Positions 45,731-56,051 of a stretch of DNA of 64,000 bases are shown piece by piece. Every line of letters starts with the position of its first letter. The first letter of the stretch is position 1. Position numbers and translations under genes: made by a program. The DNA is from Ignavibacteriota bacterium (GTDB lineage Bacteria; Bacteroidota; Ignavibacteria; UBA10030; UBA6906). The stretch lies in assembly GCA_963801355.1 (NCBI GenBank), contig CAWDEM010000008.1:2112001-2176000 (forward strand). The letters run 5' to 3'. The notes under the pieces are model-generated. The model had not been told where the DNA came from. It made no database searches and saw only the letters and a program-made list of their open reading frames with translations.

Positions 45731-45902
45731 GGAAAAAGTTCAGAAAGTGTCGAAAATAGAATCGGCAAGCCACAATCACCGATTGAACGCGGTGAAAGGG
45801 ACTTGCCGACTATTGAATACGTACTGAAAGGGGGGTAATCCGAAGCCTACTGCAGCAACAAAATGCGTTTTGTCCGGACATGAAACAGCGATGAGGTGGC
45901 GA

Positions 45903-46997
45903 CTACGTCATGAATCTACGAAAAGCGTCCCCGATTGTAAAGGAACCGCTCCGGAGCAGACGGTGTAGGGCGATGAGCCCGAGAAGCCCGCATATCAACA
46001 ACACGACAGGACCACGGTCAACAGTCGCATCATAGAGCACGTTGTCATTTGCCAATGAGCCGTCAATGTCGGGCAGGAGCGGCAGATCATATCGGGATGC
46101 GATATCCCTGATATTGAGCAGGTGCACAACGGGGATATTGCGTGAGGAGAACCGCTCGATAAGCCCCCGGCCCGGATTGCTGCAGTGCAGAGGATGCGGG
46201 ATGAGGCCGGTCGGAATTGTGCTCGCGTGTTCACATATGCCCAGACTGGTTTGATTACCGCCGATGTTCACCAGAACGTCCGGGTGCGCCGATAACAACA
46301 TCTCCTCCTTGGATTGAACCGCGTTTGCGAACGTGGGAAAGACACTCAACGCGACACCGTGTCGTTCCGCGGTCCGGCTTAGTATTTGGAGGCCTTCCTC
46401 GGACAGCCCGCCCCCGCTATCCCCCTCAGCCCCCATGGTCACGAGAGCAGACCGGTAATGGAGTCCGCCGTCCTCTCTGAGCCAGTCCTCCATGTCCAGC
46501 CACGTCGCGCCGGATTGATTCGCCCCGAAGGAAGAAGAACCCAGAGAACTCAGGATGACTGCCCGGGCACCGATCGTTTGCACGGCAGCGAGCGAGGCGA
46601 CAGCCAGTGTCGGGAACGAACCCGAAAGAACAACTCCTACCGTGGAAGATGAGTCCACGCCGGCATCGTGCAGCAATCGAATCATCAACGCCGCGAAGCG
46701 GGGATTTGCTGCCGTGCGCTTTGCCTCGAGCGACCCGAGCGTCGTCGTGAACTCCGACCACTCCTGTCCGAGCATCCCGGAATATTTGAAAGACTGAGGG
46801 ACCTCGCGGACGATTCCCGCCTGCCGCTTCCGTGCTTCGATGATGTCGAACCATTGCGATGCCAGAGCCTCCGCCCGACACATCGCAGGGGCATCAGCGC
46901 GATCGCTCCGCTTCACTAGTACGTTCCGTGCAAACACCAGCGCCAGCACCGCAACCCCGAGGATTGCGTAGAGTCGCATATGGCCCGTAGTCGCCAT
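45903..46997 (-). CDS. pgsW: Poly-gamma-glutamate system protein PgsW
   Basis: SGMLGQEWSEFTTTLGSLEAKRTAANPRFAAL, SGSFP, SSLGSSSFGAN, VNIGG, PVVHLLNI; N- and C-terminal TM segments; follows pgsBC. Start at ATG 46997. Confidence 0.85.
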   Translation of the reverse strand: MATTGHMRLYAILGVAVLALVFARNVLVKRSDRADAPAMCRAEALASQWFDIIEARKRQAGIVREVPQSFKYSGMLGQEWSEFTTTLGSLEAKRTAANPRFAALMIRLLHDAGVDSSSTVGVVLSGSFPTLAVASLAAVQTIGARAVILSSLGSSSFGANQSGATWLDMEDWLREDGGLHYRSALVTMGAEGDSGGGLSEEGLQILSRTAERHGVALSVFPTFANAVQSKEEMLLSAHPDVLVNIGGNQTSLGICEHASTIPTGLIPHPLHCSNPGRGLIERFSSRNIPVVHLLNIRDIASRYDLPLLPDIDGSLANDNVLYDATVDRGPVVLLICGLLGLIALHRLLRSGSFTIGDAFRRFMT

Positions 46998-47008
46998 GAT
47001 CAGCTGCC

Positions 47009-47434
47009 TCAACGGAGCATCAGGATCATCGCGACGAGCACTGTGACGATGCCCAGACTCGCGAGTGTCGGCAACACCTTCTGCCTCACCATCTCGTGAG
47101 CAATGAGCCCCGGGATGATGTACCCGATGGACTGCAGATCCATCGCAATTCCCCCAAGAGGCTGGATCCACCGCTCGACGGCCAGCGTGCCGCAAAACCC
47201 CAGAAGCAGGGCGAGAAGAAGCCGGCGACGTCCATAGAGAATCAGATACCCGGACAGTGCATGCAGGAGGCCCCACACCACGCAGGAGAGTATGACAGTC
47301 ACGACAATGCGATCGGGCTCTGCGATGAACAATGCGAGGTATCCCGGCGCCACCACACCGCCGGGCGAATACCCTGCGAGTTCATAAAAGAGAAAGCCCA
47401 CCACCAGTCCGATGAACAAAGCTTCTACGACCAT
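47009..47434 (-). CDS. pgsC: Poly-gamma-glutamate biosynthesis protein PgsC/CapC
   Basis: IGLVVGFLFYELAGYSPGGVVAPGYLAL, ILYGRRR, IGYIIPGLIA...RQ. Confidence 0.93.
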   Translation of the reverse strand: MVVEALFIGLVVGFLFYELAGYSPGGVVAPGYLALFIAEPDRIVVTVILSCVVWGLLHALSGYLILYGRRRLLLALLLGFCGTLAVERWIQPLGGIAMDLQSIGYIIPGLIAHEMVRQKVLPTLASLGIVTVLVAMILMLR

Positions 47435-48576
47435 TGCTGGATCCCTTTAAGTATGGCAAATCCATCTCCACCGATGTTGCCAACTCCCACGACAAGACAT
47501 CCGGCGGACAACTGCATACGCTCCAACGCCCGCACCGGATGACGCACATCGTCCGGCGACCACACATGGATTCTCTGGTTATCGACCCCCTGCTCCCGCA
47601 ATGCCCGTCGGGTCAGCTCGCGGTGGGTCCCCGTAACGGCGACCCGTTCAAGATCCGGGAGCGATCCGCACCACCCGGCAAACTGAAGTGATCGAAGCGG
47701 CCGGTCAGACCGCGTGTTCAGAATCACCGCGATGGGTCCACGATGAACGAGGTGATTCCTCCAGTACGCGACGAATTGCCGGGTGGACGGCACATCGTTC
47801 ACCGCAAAACCGTTGAGGAAGTGCACCCGGGCACCCGCAAGGTCGAACGCGTACACCGGTTTCTCCGTACTCTGGATCTCTTGAAGAATTGCCTCCATCG
47901 CCCTGTCCGGGTCAATCCCCAGTTCGCCGCATACGGTGAGGGCGAGCGCAACGTTGTCGGCGTGAATACCCGGAGGAAGCGCGGCAACAAACCGGCCCGG
48001 GAGTTTATCCGCTTGCAGTACCCGGGTCTGCTTGCGGCGGGCGTGTGAGGCAACCACATCTGCCCAGCATCGTTCGTTCGAGACAAGGACGGCACGGCGG
48101 GGAAGGAAAGCACAGACGGCATCGGCCTGATCACGAGTCGAAGTACCGAATTCCTCCCTGTGATCATCGAGTATATTGGTCAGAACGGAGATTGTCGGCC
48201 GGAAAAGGCGTGACTCGAGTGCCTGCAGCTGTGGATTGAGGGACATGCACTCCACGACGACGGTATCGCAGGAGGTGCGCCCTGTCAGGTGGAGGAAATT
48301 CACCTGCTCCTGCACGCGGGCGGGCCCACGCCGGTGAACGCGGGTTGTTGTGCCGTCGGGCAGCAGGAGGGTCGGCACTTCGCCTGTCACTTTGCCGAGG
48401 ACACGGTAGCCGCTCTCCCGAAGGACCGCCGTGATATACCGGACAACGCTTGATTTCCCCCGTGTCCCCCCTACATGCACACGCACCCGGAGTGCGGAGA
48501 CGCGTGCGCGGACTGCGAGCGCCTCTACTGCTAAAGCCGTGCAAACGAGACCAAGGAGGACCGCTACGGTCACCAT
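47425..48576 (-). CDS. pgsB: Poly-gamma-glutamate synthase PgsB/CapB (Mur-ligase-like)
   Basis: N-terminal TM; RVHVGGTRGKSS P-loop, GKVTG, EQ, VVECMSLNPQLQ, TNILDDH, NGFAVND, NTRSDR. Confidence 0.92.
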   Translation of the reverse strand: MVTVAVLLGLVCTALAVEALAVRARVSALRVRVHVGGTRGKSSVVRYITAVLRESGYRVLGKVTGEVPTLLLPDGTTTRVHRRGPARVQEQVNFLHLTGRTSCDTVVVECMSLNPQLQALESRLFRPTISVLTNILDDHREEFGTSTRDQADAVCAFLPRRAVLVSNERCWADVVASHARRKQTRVLQADKLPGRFVAALPPGIHADNVALALTVCGELGIDPDRAMEAILQEIQSTEKPVYAFDLAGARVHFLNGFAVNDVPSTRQFVAYWRNHLVHRGPIAVILNTRSDRPLRSLQFAGWCGSLPDLERVAVTGTHRELTRRALREQGVDNQRIHVWSPDDVRHPVRALERMQLSAGCLVVGVGNIGGDGFAILKGIQQWS

Positions 48577-48579
48577 TGA

Positions 48580-49134
48580 CTATTTGAATGCAGCAGCAAG
48601 AGGTTCGATGACCCCTGCTATCTTGTCGACTACCTCAATCTTCACCTTGCGGTTTGCGGCGATCTTTGTAAAGAACCCATCCTCGTTTCCCTGTTTCACG
48701 ACGATGAGTTGTCGGGCGGCCTCCGCGGCGAATTTATTGAAGTCATCCGACTGGGTCCCCCTGCGCGCCTTGCCCCCGATGTGCAATGTGATGATGGGCA
48801 GCTTTGCCGCCTGTGATGCAGCCACAATGGCTTTCACCCTCTCCATTTCCTGATCCCGGCTCGTGCCCGCCGCACCCAGTCCCTTCGAGCTGAAGCCGGC
48901 GACGATCATGAGCGTCTTGAAGCCCTTCAAGTCGGCTACAGAGGCCGCCGGAATCACCTTGGCTTCCAGTCCGGCTTTCTTGCAGAGACTTCCTGCAAGA
49001 GTCACATCGGCACTCTGGCCGGCAGAGGTAATCAGGATCGGCGACTGGAAGGCAGATGTACCCTGGGGCATCACCGGGGCAGTCGCCGCGAAGAAAAGAA
49101 CAATGACAGCCAACAGCAGATATTGACGTCGCAT
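48580..49134 (-). CDS. Exported DUF6305-like protein
   Basis: Signal peptide; PILITSAGQSAD, KTLMIVAGFSSKGLGAAG, LHIGGKARRG..SD, GNEDGFFT; start at ATG 49134 after GGAG. Confidence 0.7.
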   Translation of the reverse strand: MRRQYLLLAVIVLFFAATAPVMPQGTSAFQSPILITSAGQSADVTLAGSLCKKAGLEAKVIPAASVADLKGFKTLMIVAGFSSKGLGAAGTSRDQEMERVKAIVAASQAAKLPIITLHIGGKARRGTQSDDFNKFAAEAARQLIVVKQGNEDGFFTKIAANRKVKIEVVDKIAGVIEPLAAAFK

Positions 49135-49189
49135 GGTGCTCTCCATAGATGAACCGGATGTACACAATATACTACTATTTCCGCTTTGC

Positions 49190-50323
49190 TTACCGGAGGT
49201 ACCGTTCAACGCCCTCTTGCAGGAGTGCCGTGTAGGTCGGCAGCCTCTCCAATGTGAACGGGGAATCCGGATGCTGCACATTGTACGCATCGGTGAGCGC
49301 CCGGAGCCCTTGCACGTGACGGGCAACGCGTCGCGACAGCGACTCTCCGCCCGGGTCGTAGGTGATACGCATCGTTCCCAGCTGTTCGGCAATCCGGTAC
49401 CAGGGATCGACACCGGAGACGAGGAGCTCCTCTGAAGTTCGGCCGCGCAGCCGCCCCTGGATGGGATTGCTGGTCTCCATGAGAAACGGAATCACCGCCG
49501 TACAATCACCCCACTCGCGGTGACTCAAACCATGGAAATTCGTCGGTGACAGTTCCAGGGAGTACCGGAGGTCTTCAAACTCAAGATTCAGTACGGCATC
49601 TGCGGCCAGCTCCCGTCCCTTCTCGTGCGTGACGATTGCGTTGATAATGGGAATCTCCGGCGCCGCTTCGTGCAGGTCCACGGCGACATCCACATGTTCC
49701 CGTTTGATCAATGTGACGATGGCGAAGGCGGTCTGTTCCGTCAGCGAGCCGTCCGGTCGTCCAGGATAGGCTCTGTTCAGATTGCGAGTCTCATTGCCTG
49801 AGAGCTGCTGTGCCGAAGGATAGTGCAGATACACCATCGGATCGGGCCATTGATCGATGCCATTTGCGGCCCGTCCACCGAACCGGAATTTCCGTGTGCC
49901 GCTTCCCGTAACGAGAGAAAACGTTTGGGGAGACCCCTCCAGGGGATCCGTGCCGGTGAACCCGCTGGCACACGCCTGCGGGATGATCAGACAACGTCCG
50001 GTCCGGATGGAAAGCCGCTCGAGCAACAGTGTTGCCGCGATAAATCCCGCCGGCTCGTTCGGGTGGGTTCCACCCAGCACGAGCAGCGTCGGACCGGGGT
50101 CCCGGCCTTCAAACACGAACACACGCGTGTCTGCCCGCGTGCCGCGGAGCGACGGGCAGTAGGTACTCAGGGAGTCCACCTTCGTAAGAGCGTCCGATGG
50201 ATACAGGACGTCGGGCGACCACATGGAGACGAATTCCCTGCCCGCCACAACACAGAGAACGGCCACGATCATCAACAGGCCCAACGCTCGTGCATGATGT
50301 ACAACCATTGTCCGCGGCATCAT
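49190..50323 (-). CDS. Succinylglutamate desuccinylase/aspartoacylase-family Zn hydrolase, membrane-anchored
   Basis: GGTHPNEPAG, RNLNRAYPG, VDLHEA, HREWG, LMET; N-terminal TM; ATGA overlap with the upstream small gene. Confidence 0.85.
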   Translation of the reverse strand: MMPRTMVVHHARALGLLMIVAVLCVVAGREFVSMWSPDVLYPSDALTKVDSLSTYCPSLRGTRADTRVFVFEGRDPGPTLLVLGGTHPNEPAGFIAATLLLERLSIRTGRCLIIPQACASGFTGTDPLEGSPQTFSLVTGSGTRKFRFGGRAANGIDQWPDPMVYLHYPSAQQLSGNETRNLNRAYPGRPDGSLTEQTAFAIVTLIKREHVDVAVDLHEAAPEIPIINAIVTHEKGRELAADAVLNLEFEDLRYSLELSPTNFHGLSHREWGDCTAVIPFLMETSNPIQGRLRGRTSEELLVSGVDPWYRIAEQLGTMRITYDPGGESLSRRVARHVQGLRALTDAYNVQHPDSPFTLERLPTYTALLQEGVERYLR

Positions 50324-50466
50324 TTGACCTGCAAGATGCGCAAGAACAGAGGGATAAGCACCAATGCGAGTGCGATTTGCTCGCGCCACCGCTTCTCAGT
50401 AAACAGCTCGGCAATGAGCAATCCTGCACAATACACTGCAAGAGCGATGTACATCCAGTGCAGCAT
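50320..50466 (-). CDS. Small two-TM membrane protein, 48 aa (missed by the ORF track)
   Basis: MLHWMYIALAVYCAGLLIAELFTEKRWREQIALALVLIPLFLRILQVK*; SD AAGGA; stop overlaps the next ATG. Confidence 0.8.
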   Translation of the reverse strand: MLHWMYIALAVYCAGLLIAELFTEKRWREQIALALVLIPLFLRILQVK

Positions 50467-50481
50467 ACACGTTCCTTCTTC

Positions 50482-51777
50482 CTAGTACCGGATCATGGAC
50501 CCGAGTTGAGCCGCGTAGATGATCATGAGGATTCCCACGACAAGGGAAAGCACTATCAGGGGGAGGCTCTCCCGCAGGATGCGGAAGTGATTCTTTTCGC
50601 CCACCAGTTGAGCCGCGAAGACACAGAGCAACGACGGAGGGGGCATGAGGTCCCCCAGCCCTGCGATCAGTGACAACGCCGACGACACGACAATCTCATT
50701 GCGGCCCAGGAACACATAGACCAGCGGGACGCCCAACACTGACGATGCCGCATACGCGGAACCGAAGGCCGGCATGATTCCCGCAATGCCGAGATAGAGC
50801 AGGGCGGGCGGAAGCTGGAGCGCACTCACCGCAATGAATCCCCGCACACCGGTGAGAGTCATGATCTGGACAAACATCCCGACTCCCACGAGGATGACCA
50901 TGATGGGAAGCGCATCACGGATCGCAACACGCGATACACGCAAGAAGTTAACCCGCTCCCCTGTCCCCCACGCCGCCGCAGCACCCAGCATGAACACGAG
51001 AGGTACACCGATGTCCGGCACCCGGGCCGGCACCACACGTACTGCTACCATGAAGCCGATCACCACAAGCAACGGGAGAAAGAGCTTAGCCCCGTGACGA
51101 CTGTAGACGGACGGTGGGAGCTTGGCCAGGACGGCATCGGGGGCGATGGTGCGGATGTAGCGGACACGGAAATAGACGGCGGTAATGATCGCCAACGGCA
51201 GAGTGGCGATGAGGAGCGGAAGCTCGAAGCCGATGTACGGCATATCCACACCCCCGCCGATGATCATCACAGGAATATTGATCGGCGGTGCAATCATGCC
51301 ATAGACGGCAGCCATCGCCACGAATGAGCCAACCGCCACCGGAGGCACTCCCATCGCCAGCAGCGCGGGTGTCACAAGCGCGCCGGTCGTGAGAATGCAC
51401 GCCGACGAGAGGCCGGTGAGCATTCCGGGAAACATCACGAACAACATTACCAGGATGATCAAGAGCGTCGGCCACCGGTAGAGAGAACGGATCATCGCGA
51501 CGCTGATGGCCCCTAAGGCCCCGCTGGCTTCAATGGCTTTCATGAAGATCATCGCCGATGCGATGATCAACACGGCATCGAGATACCCGAATGTCCCTTC
51601 GACAAGATGACGCACCGGGAAGCCGTATCCTCCCGCGAGCGCGCCAGCGACCGATGCGAGCGCGAGCGCCAGCCCTGCCGGGAGTTTCCACCAGAACACT
51701 CCAACAGCAAACACCGCCAGCATGATCAGCAGGACAATGAGTTCCAGGGGCATCAGAGTGTCCGCGGGTTCATTCAA
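50482..51777 (-). CDS. DctM-like / ion-transporter-superfamily permease
   Basis: About 12 hydrophobic segments; HLVEG, IEASGAL, MFPGMLTG, GMIAPPINIP, GDLMPP. Confidence 0.8.
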   Translation of the reverse strand: MNEPADTLMPLELIVLLIMLAVFAVGVFWWKLPAGLALALASVAGALAGGYGFPVRHLVEGTFGYLDAVLIIASAMIFMKAIEASGALGAISVAMIRSLYRWPTLLIILVMLFVMFPGMLTGLSSACILTTGALVTPALLAMGVPPVAVGSFVAMAAVYGMIAPPINIPVMIIGGGVDMPYIGFELPLLIATLPLAIITAVYFRVRYIRTIAPDAVLAKLPPSVYSRHGAKLFLPLLVVIGFMVAVRVVPARVPDIGVPLVFMLGAAAAWGTGERVNFLRVSRVAIRDALPIMVILVGVGMFVQIMTLTGVRGFIAVSALQLPPALLYLGIAGIMPAFGSAYAASSVLGVPLVYVFLGRNEIVVSSALSLIAGLGDLMPPPSLLCVFAAQLVGEKNHFRILRESLPLIVLSLVVGILMIIYAAQLGSMIRY

Positions 51778-51804
51778 CCCGACACGAAGTTCTTTTGAAC
51801 CCGA

Positions 51805-52818
51805 TTATCTGTCCGCCGGACTACAGGAGAACAGATCTCGTTTCAGGGTATATGCCTCCAACGCCGTTGCAGTGGCGGGTGAGACCTGTGTGATAAGGGC
51901 ACCGATGGATGATATTTCCCCGGGGGTAATGACTGCCCGGGAAACCACTTCAACAAGGATCTCCGGCTTCTCAGCACGGCGCGGCCTCTTCTCCGGGAAA
52001 AGGATATCGCTCATCCGCGTGTTGGGATCGACCACGGCGGCTTGACGAACCCCCTGTTCTTCTAACGCACGGAGGAACTCCGGGGCGGTATATCCGTAAT
52101 GTGTGCAGCAAAGCCCCGCCAGCACCGTGCCGGGCTTCCGGGGCAGTTTCTCCAGGGCATCGGCGACAAACATATCTATCGACGATTGCACGATGTCGCC
52201 CCGCGCATCCGCTTCAATCTCGCCGGCAAGATTCGGGCATGCCTGGTTCACCAGGCGTGATGAATCGATGCCCTTCTCGATGAGTAGCCTGCGGTGTGTT
52301 CCCGCTCCGATCGTTGTCTCGGTACCGAAAATGATGGCTGTTGCATCTGCATCCGCCGTCAACCGTTCAAACAGCATCTCCACACCGGTTTCCACTATGC
52401 CGAGTACGGGTATTGAGCCCGCGGCAGCGAAGCGTGTCTCCGGTATCAGGACAGAAAGCGTGTTACAGGCCACCAGAATCACATCGGGCCTATACCAGTG
52501 AGCCATTCCCTGCAGCGCAGCATCAAACACCTGCACTTTCTCCGCCGTGCTATTCATCCGGTTGTATCCCCTGTTCGCTTCGGGTAGGGCGTTGGCGAAC
52601 ACAATCCGCAGCTTCCGGTAAATTCCCGTCTGCCGTGCACGTGATTCCACGTCTGCGCAGACCGAAAGTCCGCCGAGTCCGGAATCGGTCACGAGCACTG
52701 TTATTGAATCTCTCTCCGCCAAACGTCCGATGCGCATACGAACGGAGTCCCTGCCAAGGGACTCTGAGATCGGCACAAGCATCATGAGACCCGCCAGGGT
52801 TGTTGTGAAAGGATGCAC
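51805..52818 (-). CDS. Glutamate/aspartate racemase-family protein with a probable signal peptide
   Basis: VTDSGLGGLSV, VACNT, GTETTI, ACPNLA, LCCTHY (both catalytic Cys present); N-terminus MHPFTTTLAGLMMLVPISESLG; start GTG 52818 or TTG 52830. Confidence 0.85.
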   Translation of the reverse strand: MHPFTTTLAGLMMLVPISESLGRDSVRMRIGRLAERDSITVLVTDSGLGGLSVCADVESRARQTGIYRKLRIVFANALPEANRGYNRMNSTAEKVQVFDAALQGMAHWYRPDVILVACNTLSVLIPETRFAAAGSIPVLGIVETGVEMLFERLTADADATAIIFGTETTIGAGTHRRLLIEKGIDSSRLVNQACPNLAGEIEADARGDIVQSSIDMFVADALEKLPRKPGTVLAGLCCTHYGYTAPEFLRALEEQGVRQAAVVDPNTRMSDILFPEKRPRRAEKPEILVEVVSRAVITPGEISSIGALITQVSPATATALEAYTLKRDLFSCSPADR

Positions 52819-52973
52819 TGTATTCCCCAATTACCGGTTATTTGCAGCAGGTTTCGAGTTGGCCCATGCGAAAATGTCTGGATTTGGAGGCCGAATATCA
52901 AGTCCCCGATTGTACCTCTCATCTTTAGTGGATATCTTTGCAGTGAGACAGCTCCTCCTTACGCAAGGTGCCT

Positions 52974-54458
52974 ATGCGTCCCAGATGCTTCGTTGCACTC
53001 CTTGTCCCGGTTCTCCTCGCGTCGTTTCTCTTTGCGGAGACACTTCCCCGCCGGACGCTCCTGATCCGCATCGACAACGTGACATCCGATGCGCTCGTGA
53101 AATCGGGCATTCTGGATCTTGATGAGTACGAGTATCGCAGCATAGTTTCCGTGGTGCGTGATACGGCATTCGCGCTCGTGACTCCCGCCGAACTGAACCT
53201 CCTCCGTGAACGCGGTTTCGCGTGCGTGACCGTGGCGGAGGATTCGAGCGAGCTTGCGCTTGTCCGGCGCGCGGTGTACGGCCCCACCCTCCGCCTGGAA
53301 AAACCGTACCACACCTACGCGGAGATCGTCCGGGAGATGGAATCACTGCAGAAAGCGTTCCCCGCCCTCGTCCAGGTTTTTCCGGTCGGGGTCACGACCC
53401 GGACGGAACAACCAATTTATGCAGTCAGGATCACGCGTGACGTCAAGAAGAACAACGCCCGCCCTGCCATTCTGATCAACGGTTGCCACCATAGTGACGA
53501 AGTCCTCGGAGCGGAGATCTGTGTCGCAACGGTGCACGAACTCCTGGAACGGTACGGGACGGATCAGGATGTCTCGCGCTGGGTGGACATGTTCCAGATA
53601 TATATCATCCCGGTGTTGAACGTGGAGGGTCACGACATCGTGACGTCCGGAAAGGATCCGCGATGGCGGAAAAATACGCGCGATACCGACAGCAACGGGG
53701 CGCTGAACTTTCCGGATGGCGTCGACCTCAACAGGAACTATGACTTCAACTGGGCTCATGGAGGCAGCGGGGAACCGTCAAGCGGTCGATATCGTGGTGC
53801 ATTCCCGTTTTCCGAGTCGGAATCACGCGCCTTCGCCGGCCTCGCACAGCAGAAACGCTTCGTTCTCTCCCTGACCTACCACAGCCAGGGGGAAGTCATT
53901 TACTATCCCTGGATCTGGAGCGGGCGCAAAGCTCCGGACGATCTTCTCCTCACGGAGATCGCACACGGTCTCGCCGGCAGCATTCCGACAATGCGTGGTG
54001 ATACGTCGTACAAGGCAGAGTATGGCGCCGGGCTTGTCGGACAATCCTACCCCTGGCTGTACGGAAGACTCGGCACATGTGATTTTGTTGTGGAGACGGG
54101 GAAAGGAGCCAGCATTTTTCCTCCCCATGAAGTTGCGGGAATCGTACGCGCAAATCTCAAGGGAATCCGCTACATGCTTCACCGGGCTGAAGGTCCCGGA
54201 CTTGCGGTGCATGTGATAGATGCCAAAACCGGTATCCCGCTCGAAGCCGCAGTCTGGTTCCCTGCCATAGAAACCGAGGACGTCGACCGACGTACCAGCC
54301 ATCCGGAGACCGGAATGCTCTATCGTCTCCTGAAACCCGGATCGTACACCTTGATTGTATCCAGGCCCGGCTATGGTCCCGTGGTCCTGAACAACATCGC
54401 CGCCGGTGATACGGGTTGGACACCAGTGGAAGTGCGGCTTGAAAAGTCGGGAAGGTGA
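52974..54458 (+). CDS. M14 zinc carboxypeptidase (carboxypeptidase T-like), exported
   Basis: YHTYAE, GCHHSDE, IPVLNVEG, WRKN, GVDLNRNY, FSESES, TYHSQG, FVVE; C-terminal transthyretin-like domain; signal peptide. Confidence 0.9.
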   Translation: MRPRCFVALLVPVLLASFLFAETLPRRTLLIRIDNVTSDALVKSGILDLDEYEYRSIVSVVRDTAFALVTPAELNLLRERGFACVTVAEDSSELALVRRAVYGPTLRLEKPYHTYAEIVREMESLQKAFPALVQVFPVGVTTRTEQPIYAVRITRDVKKNNARPAILINGCHHSDEVLGAEICVATVHELLERYGTDQDVSRWVDMFQIYIIPVLNVEGHDIVTSGKDPRWRKNTRDTDSNGALNFPDGVDLNRNYDFNWAHGGSGEPSSGRYRGAFPFSESESRAFAGLAQQKRFVLSLTYHSQGEVIYYPWIWSGRKAPDDLLLTEIAHGLAGSIPTMRGDTSYKAEYGAGLVGQSYPWLYGRLGTCDFVVETGKGASIFPPHEVAGIVRANLKGIRYMLHRAEGPGLAVHVIDAKTGIPLEAAVWFPAIETEDVDRRTSHPETGMLYRLLKPGSYTLIVSRPGYGPVVLNNIAAGDTGWTPVEVRLEKSGR

Positions 54459-54488: not shown

Positions 54489-56051
54489 TCACAACAACAC
54501 GAGCTTGCGGGTCTCTTCGATAAAGCCCGCCGGGCCGGCCTCGACACCACCCGATGAACTGCTCGCCGACATCCGGTAGAAATACACGCCGCTCGCGAGC
54601 CCCCTGGCATCAAATGTGGCCGTGTGGTTGCCCGGCATTCTCTCCCCATCCACCAGCACTGCAACCTCACGCCCGAGCAGATCATACACGGCCAGCCTGA
54701 CCCGGCTGGACCCCGGCCCAGGGACACTGAACCCTATCGTCGTGCTTGGATTGAACGGGTTCGGATAATTTTGGAAAAGCTGCACACTCTGCGGCCTCCC
54801 GCCGGCTGCCGCTTCAACTCCGGTTGCTCTGAACGCCGCCTTTATACCGTTCCATATTTCCGAACGCCCGCCTTCGTGGCTAAGCGCCCATATGCCGACT
54901 CCAGCCAGCGCCCGGGCATTGGCGAGGTTGTACTTCAGCGCAAGACTGAGGCTGTCATCGTACCAGACCTGGCGCCATGTCGTCCCTGACATGTAGGTAA
55001 ACCAGGGAACCTGTGTGGTTGCATCGAAGATCTTCCCGTAGGAGCCCGCCATCGGTTCAGCCACAGAATAGACCCGTGAGGAAGCCGTCCCCGTGGCAGC
55101 GGACTTGCGGTCGCCACTTACGACAGGCCAATCAAGTCCGTACCATGGCACACCGAGCAGCAATTTCTGCGGAGGTACTCCGGCGGCAAGATAGGTGTCA
55201 ATGGTCCGTGTGATGTTGTAGTTCTCCCCTGCAAGCGGCGCGACAGGGCCGGCGGTGGTGGATCCGCTCCAGTAGTAATCATACCCCATCACAATCAGAT
55301 AGTCGCATATCTGTCCGAGCTGGACGAAGTCCCATGTACCGGACCAGTCAACTGACGGCGTAGCCATAGAAATTTCGGCGCCGGGGATTGCAGCTTTGAT
55401 CCGTGTTACGGCCCGGCGCATGAACGCAACAAGGTTCGCCCGCTGGGTGTTGCGCACCATTTCGAGGTCAAAATTCACCCCATCCCCGCTCCGTGAGGCA
55501 AGCAGGGAAATCAGTGTCGTCAGCATCTGCTCCTGCTTCAGCGTGTCCCCCAGTATCATGTCGTTCTGGTCGTAGCCGAAATTCGTGACCGTCAGCGTGA
55601 CCTTGACGCCCCGTTCATGTGCATAGCTGATGATCGGCGTTGTATTCCACGCCCGTATTGTTGTGTATCCGCCCGTGGCCGGGTCGGTCTCATAGCTGAA
55701 ATACGCAATATGAGTCAGAGCCGAGTAGTCGAAAGAGAGATATGCGTTGGCTGCAGCCCAGTAGGGATGCCATCCGTATACATACCTGCCAGTTGCGCTA
55801 TTTCCGCCGGACCTGCCGATCAAAGGAACCGGGGCAGCCGGATCACCAGCCGTGGTGATGGTATCATTGCGATGCATCTCTGCTTCTATCTGATGGATAC
55901 CGGAGTGCCAGACTTCTTGTTGTGCGAGGGCAAGCGCGGGCAGGAGGGACAGCAGGAGGAAACCTTGGGATGCAATCGTGTGTGCCACAATCCGTCGGCG
56001 CAGAACGTGCATGCTCCTTGTAAAGATACAACCTGTGCGGTAATTGCGCAT
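54489..56051 (-). CDS. GH18 family hydrolase with T9SS CTD (start 56051 or 56012)
   Basis: LTHIAYFS, DGVNFDLE, VMGYDY, KLLLGVPWYG, VWYDD, GVGIWAL, NYPNPFNP. Confidence 0.88.
   Translation of the reverse strand: MRNYRTGCIFTRSMHVLRRRIVAHTIASQGFLLLSLLPALALAQQEVWHSGIHQIEAEMHRNDTITTAGDPAAPVPLIGRSGGNSATGRYVYGWHPYWAAANAYLSFDYSALTHIAYFSYETDPATGGYTTIRAWNTTPIISYAHERGVKVTLTVTNFGYDQNDMILGDTLKQEQMLTTLISLLASRSGDGVNFDLEMVRNTQRANLVAFMRRAVTRIKAAIPGAEISMATPSVDWSGTWDFVQLGQICDYLIVMGYDYYWSGSTTAGPVAPLAGENYNITRTIDTYLAAGVPPQKLLLGVPWYGLDWPVVSGDRKSAATGTASSRVYSVAEPMAGSYGKIFDATTQVPWFTYMSGTTWRQVWYDDSLSLALKYNLANARALAGVGIWALSHEGGRSEIWNGIKAAFRATGVEAAAGGRPQSVQLFQNYPNPFNPSTTIGFSVPGPGSSRVRLAVYDLLGREVAVLVDGERMPGNHTATFDARGLASGVYFYRMSASSSSGGVEAGPAGFIEETRKLVLL

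Follow-up and report, generated by a model that had tools for sequence, protein, structure and literature searches.

Whether the genes that precede a poly-gamma-glutamate synthase cassette belong to the same system, and what they would add to it, is the question raised by an operon in the genome of an Ignavibacteriota bacterium (assembly GCA_963801355.1). The window, that is, the whole stretch of 64,000 nucleotides that was analysed (contig CAWDEM010000008.1, positions 2,112,001 to 2,176,000), carries on its minus strand the genes pgsB, pgsC and pgsW and, directly upstream of them, genes for a racemase-like protein, a permease, a 48-residue protein, a deacylase and a protein of family DUF6305. 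Research on poly-gamma-glutamate has dealt almost exclusively with Bacillus. The comparisons presented here indicate that the five upstream genes are very probably coupled in function to pgsBCW. The pgsBCW core is already known; the extended module, predicted to be exported, is an undescribed variant.

Operon structure and conserved linkage

The preliminary description of this DNA had recognised eight co-oriented genes with overlaps or gaps of at most about 55 nt, and sequence comparison confirms them as a real operon whose gene order is conserved across several phyla and whose start and stop codons overlap. With gene starts picked by comparison with homologues, the successive junctions measure 51, 15, -4, 55, 3, -10 and 11 nt, and at the junction of -4 nt the stop codon of the 48-residue open reading frame (ORF) lies in the start of the deacylase gene (ATGA).

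The extended form is widespread. An alignment search with DUF6305 reached at least 500 places, confirmed by tblastn, on contigs representing one genome per species, and thus at least 500 species representatives. The best 80 of these at least 500 loci were retrieved together with flanks of up to 10 kb; they derive from Ignavibacteria, Bacteroidota, Zixibacteria, Calditrichota, Neomarinimicrobiota, Acidobacteriota (Vicinamibacterales, Thermoanaerobaculia) and Fibrobacteraceae. All ORFs of the 80 loci were searched by phmmer with the proteins of the window. Upstream neighbours could be judged in the 69 loci with at least 3.6 kb before DUF6305, and downstream neighbours in the 60 with at least 5.5 kb after it. 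The deacylase gene stands directly upstream of DUF6305 in 63 of the 69, and the permease, 48-residue and deacylase genes are all found upstream in 59. Downstream and on the same strand, pgsB-pgsC-pgsW follows in 48 of the 60 loci, and pgsB and pgsW are present somewhere in the locus in 53. The preliminary description had proposed a gene-neighbourhood check, and homologues of DUF6305, the deacylase and the permease do co-occur with pgsBCW in most judgeable loci. For the seven loci of 60 that have no pgs gene nearby (10 kb), a PgsB above the cut-off is encoded elsewhere in six of the genomes; in one metagenome-assembled genome (MAG) that carries the module, G404, no PgsB match was found. One genome shows the order pgsBCW-DUF6305-permease-orf48-deacylase, which indicates that the linkage survives rearrangement. 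Such an arrangement, shared by dozens of genomes from several phyla, is far beyond chance.

Because these 80 loci are biased towards proteins like that of the window and towards kin, whole phyla were sampled too. Among 401 genomes of the window's own phylum, PgsW was found in 12 and a strong DUF6305 match in seven, each of the seven within 0.2-7 kb of PgsW. Among 151 genomes of Zixibacteria, the phylum of locus L040, the corresponding figures are 25 and six, with all six DUF6305 genes within 3.6-4.6 kb of PgsW. In the two samples together, every genome with DUF6305 (13 of 13) has PgsW within 7 kb, and 24 of the 37 genomes with PgsW have no DUF6305. Five bare pgsBCW loci within the window's own class have no module gene within about 8-10 kb. 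DUF6305 is thus always near PgsW while PgsW often stands alone, which marks the module as an optional add-on that depends on pgsBCW. The suggestion that the upstream genes supply missing periplasmic chemistry is therefore upheld only in part: their tie to pgsBCW and their predicted action outside the cytoplasm agree with it, but an indispensable step of synthesis is not what they provide, given the 24 of 37 PgsW genomes that do without the module.

A reduced form of the module

In the relatives of the window's operon, a gene of 570-680 codons between DUF6305 and pgsB encodes a gamma-glutamyltranspeptidase (GGT; PF01019, E about 1e-140). This operon-type GGT is present in 76 of the 80 loci (e.g. 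L007:10513-12414 and L052:10567-12288), and in 71 of the 75 loci long enough to judge its start lies no more than 1.3 kb behind DUF6305. No GGT follows DUF6305 in the window or in loci L005, L006 and L012, and L017 is too short to judge; L005 and L006 are the closest relatives of the window, with DUF6305 identities of 86% and 72%. None of the genome's GGT (CapD) matches falls inside the window, the family being found elsewhere in the genome. These and other GGTs encoded elsewhere in genomes of the window's clade are only 33-41% identical to operon-type GGTs, whereas the operon GGT of L007 is 44-67% identical to the other operon GGTs, except that of L064 at 34%; on these figures, the possibility that the GGTs of the clade's own genomes are a relocated operon GGT was rejected. 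Two of the three GGT paralogs in the window's genome are split over adjacent or overlapping frames (G000:C4:42932-44699 and G000:C6:2967-5700) and may represent frameshifts or pseudogenes.

A second enzyme of the relatives is an FGase-like amidohydrolase (PF05013, about 310 aa), found in 37 of the 80 loci, with all 20 aligned members matching the family. Examples lie at L044:10481-11440, L023:6361-7281, L009:4391-6262 and L016:10849-12735, and in some copies the enzyme is fused to both a lamin-tail domain and a sorting tail of the type IX secretion system (T9SS). The window's genome has no FGase-like protein.

As far as sequence comparison can tell, a CapD-like GGT is a normal part of the extended system that has been lost in the window's clade, and the window holds a GGT-less minimal form of the module. 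The operon had been thought to make up a complete system; with relatives adding GGT (71 of 75 loci) and the FGase-like enzyme (37 of 80), it is better described as a reduced variant. As a natural minimal version it may help to sort out which parts are essential. A different departure from the usual layout is seen at L012:7224-19411, where two permease-orf48-deacylase-DUF6305 copies stand in opposite orientation with a C69 peptidase between them and no GGT; one of the two copies abuts pgsBCW.

The synthase core

The three synthase genes are assigned with confidence by family models. PgsB (47425..48576, 383 aa), the ligase subunit of poly-gamma-glutamate synthase, scores 249.6 bits on TIGR04012 against an NCBIfam cut-off of 222.7 and also matches Mur_ligase_M. 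The membrane subunit PgsC (47009..47434, 141 aa) reaches 109.4 bits on TIGR04011 (cut-off 96.45), matches PF14102 and has four hydrophobic segments, taken as four transmembrane helices. PgsW (45903..46997, 364 aa), whose gene directly follows pgsC after an 11-nt gap, scores 269.6 bits on TIGR04332, named "poly-gamma-glutamate system protein", against a cut-off of 100. Its AlphaFold2 (AF2) model, with a predicted local distance difference test (pLDDT) value of 92.9, has a transmembrane helix at each end and an alpha/beta domain between them. Foldseek found no solved relative of PgsW at E <= 0.001, and no fold was assigned from the best VIA match, Z 8.1 over 116 residues (7cn3_A). A relationship between the PgsW domain and DUF6305 was considered and rejected (hhalign probability 0.8%).

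The PgsW proteins that accompany the module differ somewhat from those that do not. In the sample of the window's phylum, module-linked PgsW scores 225-308 bits on TIGR04332 versus 311-345 for bare PgsW, and in the second phylum sample 262-291 versus 280-321. The mostly lower scores of the module-linked proteins hint at a co-adapted subtype.

The accessory proteins

The racemase-like protein (51805..52830, 341 aa from TTG 52830; GTG 52818 is also possible) matches TIGR00067 below threshold, at 52.3 bits against 146.65, and PF01177 at 25 bits. The genome's canonical murI lies elsewhere and scores 255 bits on TIGR00067. A hidden Markov model of the racemase family gives 300-476 bits to operon-linked homologues and 55 to the genome's own MurI. 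The two catalytic cysteines, whose motif positions we take from known Asp/Glu racemase chemistry, are kept in 28 of 28 sequences (Cys1) and in 26 of 27 (Cys2). At their N-termini the homologues in 26 loci all run on into a segment that is hydrophobic and signal-like, with an 11-residue Kyte-Doolittle mean of at least 1.9 in 24 of them and of 1.84 and 1.89 in the other two; the window's ORF from TTG 52830 aligns with this segment and has a value of 2.09. A cytoplasmic racemase starting at ATG 52737 was the first reading and was dropped after the N-termini of the homologues had been compared. The protein is thus a divergent MurI paralog that is probably exported; a glutamate racemase that is both cofactor-independent and exported would be out of the ordinary. 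The periplasmic racemisation put forward earlier for this operon gains support as a prediction from the signal-like N-termini and from both catalytic cysteines.

The deacylase (49190..50323, 377 aa) appears to be a membrane-anchored zinc amidohydrolase of the AstE/AspA type that is predicted to be exported. It matches PF24827 (AstE_AspA_cat) at 37.7 bits against a cut-off of 25 and PF17033 (M99) weakly, reaches only 33 bits on the DoeB equivalog model (cut-off 402.7), and has an N-terminal transmembrane segment or anchor at residues 14-32. At least 95% of 74 homologues share H87, E90, N181, R184, H218 and E283, which presumably correspond to the zinc ligands, carboxylate-binding pair and catalytic Glu of M14-like enzymes. 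The nearest solved relatives (2qj8, DoeB 6twm, 3na6 and Csd4 4wck) are, apart from Csd4, AstE/AspA-family proteins and N-acyl-amino-acid deacylases. Enzymes of the AstE/AspA type act on amino acids whose alpha-carboxylate is free and cut an acyl group off their amino group. The last residue at the C-terminal end of a gamma-glutamyl chain is an N-acyl-glutamate, so that its linkage is of the bond type cut by this family.

The permease (50482..51753, 423 aa, about 10-12 transmembrane helices) matches PF06808 (DctM) at 29.8 bits (gathering score 23.8), over residues 55-172 only and thus about 115 of the model's 413 positions. Its nearest Atlas clusters are a mixture of DctM, DcuC and GntP; ten hydrophobic segments are seen, and homologues are 421-423 aa long with a mean column identity of 63%. 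Sequence search found no solved relative, and none of the eight operon proteins has a DctQ or DctP family match at E <= 0.01. Family matches place the permease as a putative carboxylate carrier of the ion-transporter superfamily.

The adjoining 48-residue ORF (50320..50466) is, on its conservation, a real gene for a predicted two-helix membrane protein. In 70 loci the gene always comes after that of the permease, and its product measures 47-51 residues (41 in one locus) with a conserved motif, E..E..W..Q...LR; the window's protein has two hydrophobic segments and no Pfam or NCBIfam match. The protein is likely to be a small subunit of the permease. A predicted complex of the two lends weak support to this, with a score of 0.45 against 0.00 for the best of three controls, at least 98% contact agreement between runs and a partner pLDDT of at least 73. 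Among solved complexes, 116 of 157 reach the mark used for such predictions, as against 2 of 215 mismatched pairs, but scores of 0.60 or less include only 18 of the 157 solved complexes and both of the mismatches that passed. The ORF was also considered as a CapE analogue; this was not adopted, as it keeps to the permease and not to the pgs genes when the two are separated.

The DUF6305 protein (48580..49134, 184 aa) consists of a signal peptide and an alpha/beta domain of 155 residues. Its match to PF19823 is strong (7.7e-48, 162.4 bits against a gathering score of 25), and 45 alignment columns are invariant among 25 sequences; S41, S82, H118, R124, R125 and D130 belong to the invariant residues. 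The AF2 model (pLDDT 88.4) is a three-layer alpha/beta sandwich, Rossmann- or flavodoxin-like, and its solved relatives are generic only, the best Foldseek TM-score being 0.48 and the best VIA-align Z 9.4, in Rossmann-like rows. Profile searches with DUF6305 returned nothing in Pfam at E <= 10 and nothing in the PDB profile search. Residue spacing raised the idea that the protein might be a Ser-His-acid hydrolase of the class I amidotransferase or S51 type; neither family came up in the Foldseek, VIA-align, Pfam or PDB profile searches. A metagenome protein of 717 aa (P0121), a single member from one contig, is a natural fusion with GGT at its N-terminus and DUF6305 at residues 558-698. This fusion, together with the near-constant adjacency of the two genes, ties DUF6305 to gamma-glutamyl processing.

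A possible glutamate cycle and its alternatives

The analysis establishes the gene content and its conserved linkage, shows that the module depends on pgsBCW, and finds a predicted exported location and intact catalytic motifs. The signs of action outside the cytoplasm are the signal peptide of DUF6305, the N-terminal anchor of the deacylase and the signal-like N-termini of the racemase family. As the accessory enzymes seen across relatives (the AstE/AspA-type amidohydrolase, GGT, the FGase-like amidohydrolase and the racemase) all act, by family, on glutamyl amide bonds or free glutamate, are predicted to be exported and are encoded together with a carboxylate carrier, the simplest reading is one of trimming and re-uptake. 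The best reading of the module, in which we place roughly even confidence, is that glutamate is trimmed from the cell's own polymer and racemised outside the cytoplasm and then taken up again. PgsB, a cytoplasmic ATP-dependent ligase, would form with PgsC and PgsW a synthase of the diderm type that pushes the polymer through to the outer side of the inner membrane. There the membrane-anchored zinc amidohydrolase would take off the C-terminal glutamate of the polymer, and the exported two-thiol racemase would interconvert the freed D- and L-glutamate. The DctM/DcuC-like carrier and its 48-residue partner would return the glutamate to the cell. DUF6305 may serve as an exported helper in gamma-glutamyl processing, by polymer binding or as a hydrolase, and would do so alongside the CapD-like GGT in relatives. 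The substrates, the direction of transport and poly-gamma-glutamate as the product are the elements of this scheme that we infer. Among the roles suggested in the preliminary description, C-terminal glutamate trimming and re-uptake fit the enzyme families, whereas export or anchoring is not supported, as no gene of the operon resembles one for an outer-membrane exporter or an anchoring enzyme.

Several points weigh against the trimming and re-uptake reading. Fold and profile searches give DUF6305 no assignable activity. The loci that reveal the linkage are the 80 most like the window's DUF6305, and related genomes among them are not independent. The GGT of most relatives is absent from the window, so that the module may function here in another way or less fully. 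The signal peptide of the window's racemase is weak, being without a positive n-region and having a short h-region, and the internal ATG 52737 would yield a cytoplasmic enzyme; a thiol-dependent racemase in an oxidising periplasm is itself unusual. Finally, synthesis and breakdown encoded in one operon need regulation, and none is seen here.

The alternative that survives best is maturation, anchoring or export, in which the accessory proteins would tailor the nascent polymer (its length, release or attachment to the envelope) or aid its exit, with no salvage purpose. In its favour, the module and the synthase genes are closely bound together, the GGT of relatives occupies the CapD position, and module-linked PgsW scores lower on TIGR04332, which suggests a co-adapted subtype. 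Bacillus operons likewise co-encode a processing enzyme (CapD, PgdS). We nevertheless regard this alternative as unlikely: no outer-membrane protein or secretin-like gene is found among the operon's proteins, the window's clade no longer has the GGT, 24 of the 37 PgsW genomes have pgsBCW but not the module, and a small-molecule carrier and a racemase of free amino acids are better suited to the handling of monomers.

The module might instead serve foraging, degrading and importing foreign gamma-glutamyl polymers or peptides and neighbouring pgsBCW through shared regulation of the glutamate economy. Such a role would account for the seven of 60 loci where the module lies without pgsBCW within 10 kb, for MAG G404 with its module and no PgsB match, and for the occasional placement of the module beside secreted proteins with T9SS tags, some of which are FGase-like and have sorting tails. 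A pure foraging set would, however, be expected often in genomes that do not make the polymer, while all 13 DUF6305 genomes of the two phylum samples have PgsW close by and six of the seven unlinked cases have PgsB elsewhere in the genome; foraging therefore appears quite improbable.

It is very unlikely that the module is there for precursor supply, with the carrier importing external glutamate and the racemase and hydrolases providing D-Glu or free Glu to PgsB. The carrier is of the carboxylate kind, the catalytic cysteines of the racemase are intact, and Bacillus producers do have a dedicated racemase (RacE) for the supply of D-Glu. Against this, the substrate of PgsB is cytoplasmic but the racemase family has predicted export signals, the genome has its own MurI, and two or three glutamyl-amide hydrolases are not needed for the mere import of glutamate. 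That the genes are functionally unrelated neighbours by chance is hardly credible in view of the conserved order in several phyla, the overlaps of start and stop codons and the co-occurrence of module and pgsBCW at the level of whole genomes.

The trimming and re-uptake reading can be carried further, to a proposal that we consider possible but rather doubtful: bacteria of the Fibrobacteres-Chlorobi-Bacteroidetes (FCB) group and allied two-membrane bacteria would run an extracytoplasmic glutamate cycle on their own gamma-glutamyl polymer as a reversible store or buffer in the envelope, served by an exported racemase, a DUF6305-GGT partnership and a carrier with a 48-residue subunit, all of them without precedent. 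If this were true, DUF6305 would be a new kind of protein that binds or cleaves gamma-glutamyl polymers in partnership with GGT, and the window's clade would show that the glutamate cycle can run without GGT. The extension joins the synthase to four uncharacterised players, namely DUF6305, PgsW, the 48-residue membrane protein and the predicted exported racemase. It thereby offers candidate proteins for the turnover of the polymer and for the extracytoplasmic handling of D-glutamate, and a biological context for DUF6305.

Relation to known systems

The window shares with the diderm pgsB-pgsC-pgsW cassette three proteins that score above their cut-offs and are encoded adjacently in the same order. 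Unlike that cassette, the operon here and in many genomes of the FCB group is extended by a predicted exported module of five to seven genes. PMC4497714 names Fusobacterium nucleatum, with reference to Candela 2009, as the first producer known among Gram-negative bacteria and gives homologues of PgsB and PgsC in 250 species of 58 genera; PMC9324843 only mentions CapBC in MAGs, and the product name of TIGR04332 occurs in one Francisella paper. A literature search returned no paper on DUF6305 and none pairing pgsB with Ignavibacteria; among the matches listed, "pgsW" is not used as the name of this gene and there is no exported glutamate racemase in this context.

With the pgsBCA(E) and capBCADE systems of Bacillus the operon has in common the PgsB and PgsC core and, in relatives, a GGT in the place of CapD. 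It differs in having neither PgsA/CapA nor a CapD-type GGT, as the preliminary description had stated for the window: the genome's three PGA_cap (PF09587) matches (C8:235463, C8:654418 and C4:1464992) all lie outside C8:2112001-2176000, as do its GGT matches. It differs further in PgsW, which fold searches relate to nothing solved, and in the two-membrane cell, which offers a periplasm for the polymer to enter.

In B. subtilis the polymer is broken down by exported GGT and PgdS. The likeness lies in exported gamma-glutamyl hydrolases beside or together with the synthase, with salvage of glutamate as the presumed role. The enzymes are different here, an AstE/AspA-type amidohydrolase and DUF6305, with the FGase-like protein in relatives, and the module has a carrier and a predicted exported racemase of its own.

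The deacylase resembles AstE, AspA and DoeB, and the M14-like Csd4 and Pgp1, in its conserved HxxE, NxxR, H and E residues and its PF24827 match, but it is membrane-anchored, predicted to be exported and far below the DoeB cut-off. The permease falls among the clusters of tripartite ATP-independent periplasmic (TRAP; DctQM), DcuC and GntP carriers and has a small membrane partner encoded next door; it differs from TRAP carriers in having neither DctQ nor a binding protein of the DctP type, and the partner has only 48 residues and two helices.

Flanking regions

The intergenic region between the operon and a divergent M14 gene (52831..52967) is, by position only, the presumed promoter region. 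A weak terminator-like hairpin (45760..45784, minus strand), about 120 nt past the stop codon of pgsW, comes from a consensus scan only, in which 9 sites were found versus 6.3 expected in shuffles; the promoter and terminator scan of the stretch as a whole is close to the shuffle level. In metagenome runs only small shares of the stretch turned up.

On the 3' side, a gap of 520 nt separates the operon from an MFS_2 transporter gene, a LacI regulator gene and a long cluster for xylan utilisation. This cluster (1536-45382, minus strand) includes four GH10 genes, GH43, GH67, GH3 and GH116, a GH115-GH43 fusion (1566 aa), a TonB-dependent receptor and the LacI regulator and MFS_2 carrier, and several of its enzymes have T9SS sorting tails. 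On the other side, the divergent gene (52968-54458, plus strand) encodes a zinc carboxypeptidase of the M14 family, which has a CarboxypepD_reg domain and whose N-terminus is signal-like. It was rejected as a member of the system, a phmmer match occurring beside the module in none of the 80 loci; it could nonetheless be a stand-in for the lost GGT or FGase-like hydrolases in the window's clade. Beyond it lies a GH18 chitinase-like protein with a T9SS sorting domain (54489-56051, minus strand), and the matches to "up520" in related loci were dismissed as due solely to the T9SS sorting tail shared with this protein. The flanking genes thus do not recur beside the module elsewhere, which identifies the operon as a self-contained unit.

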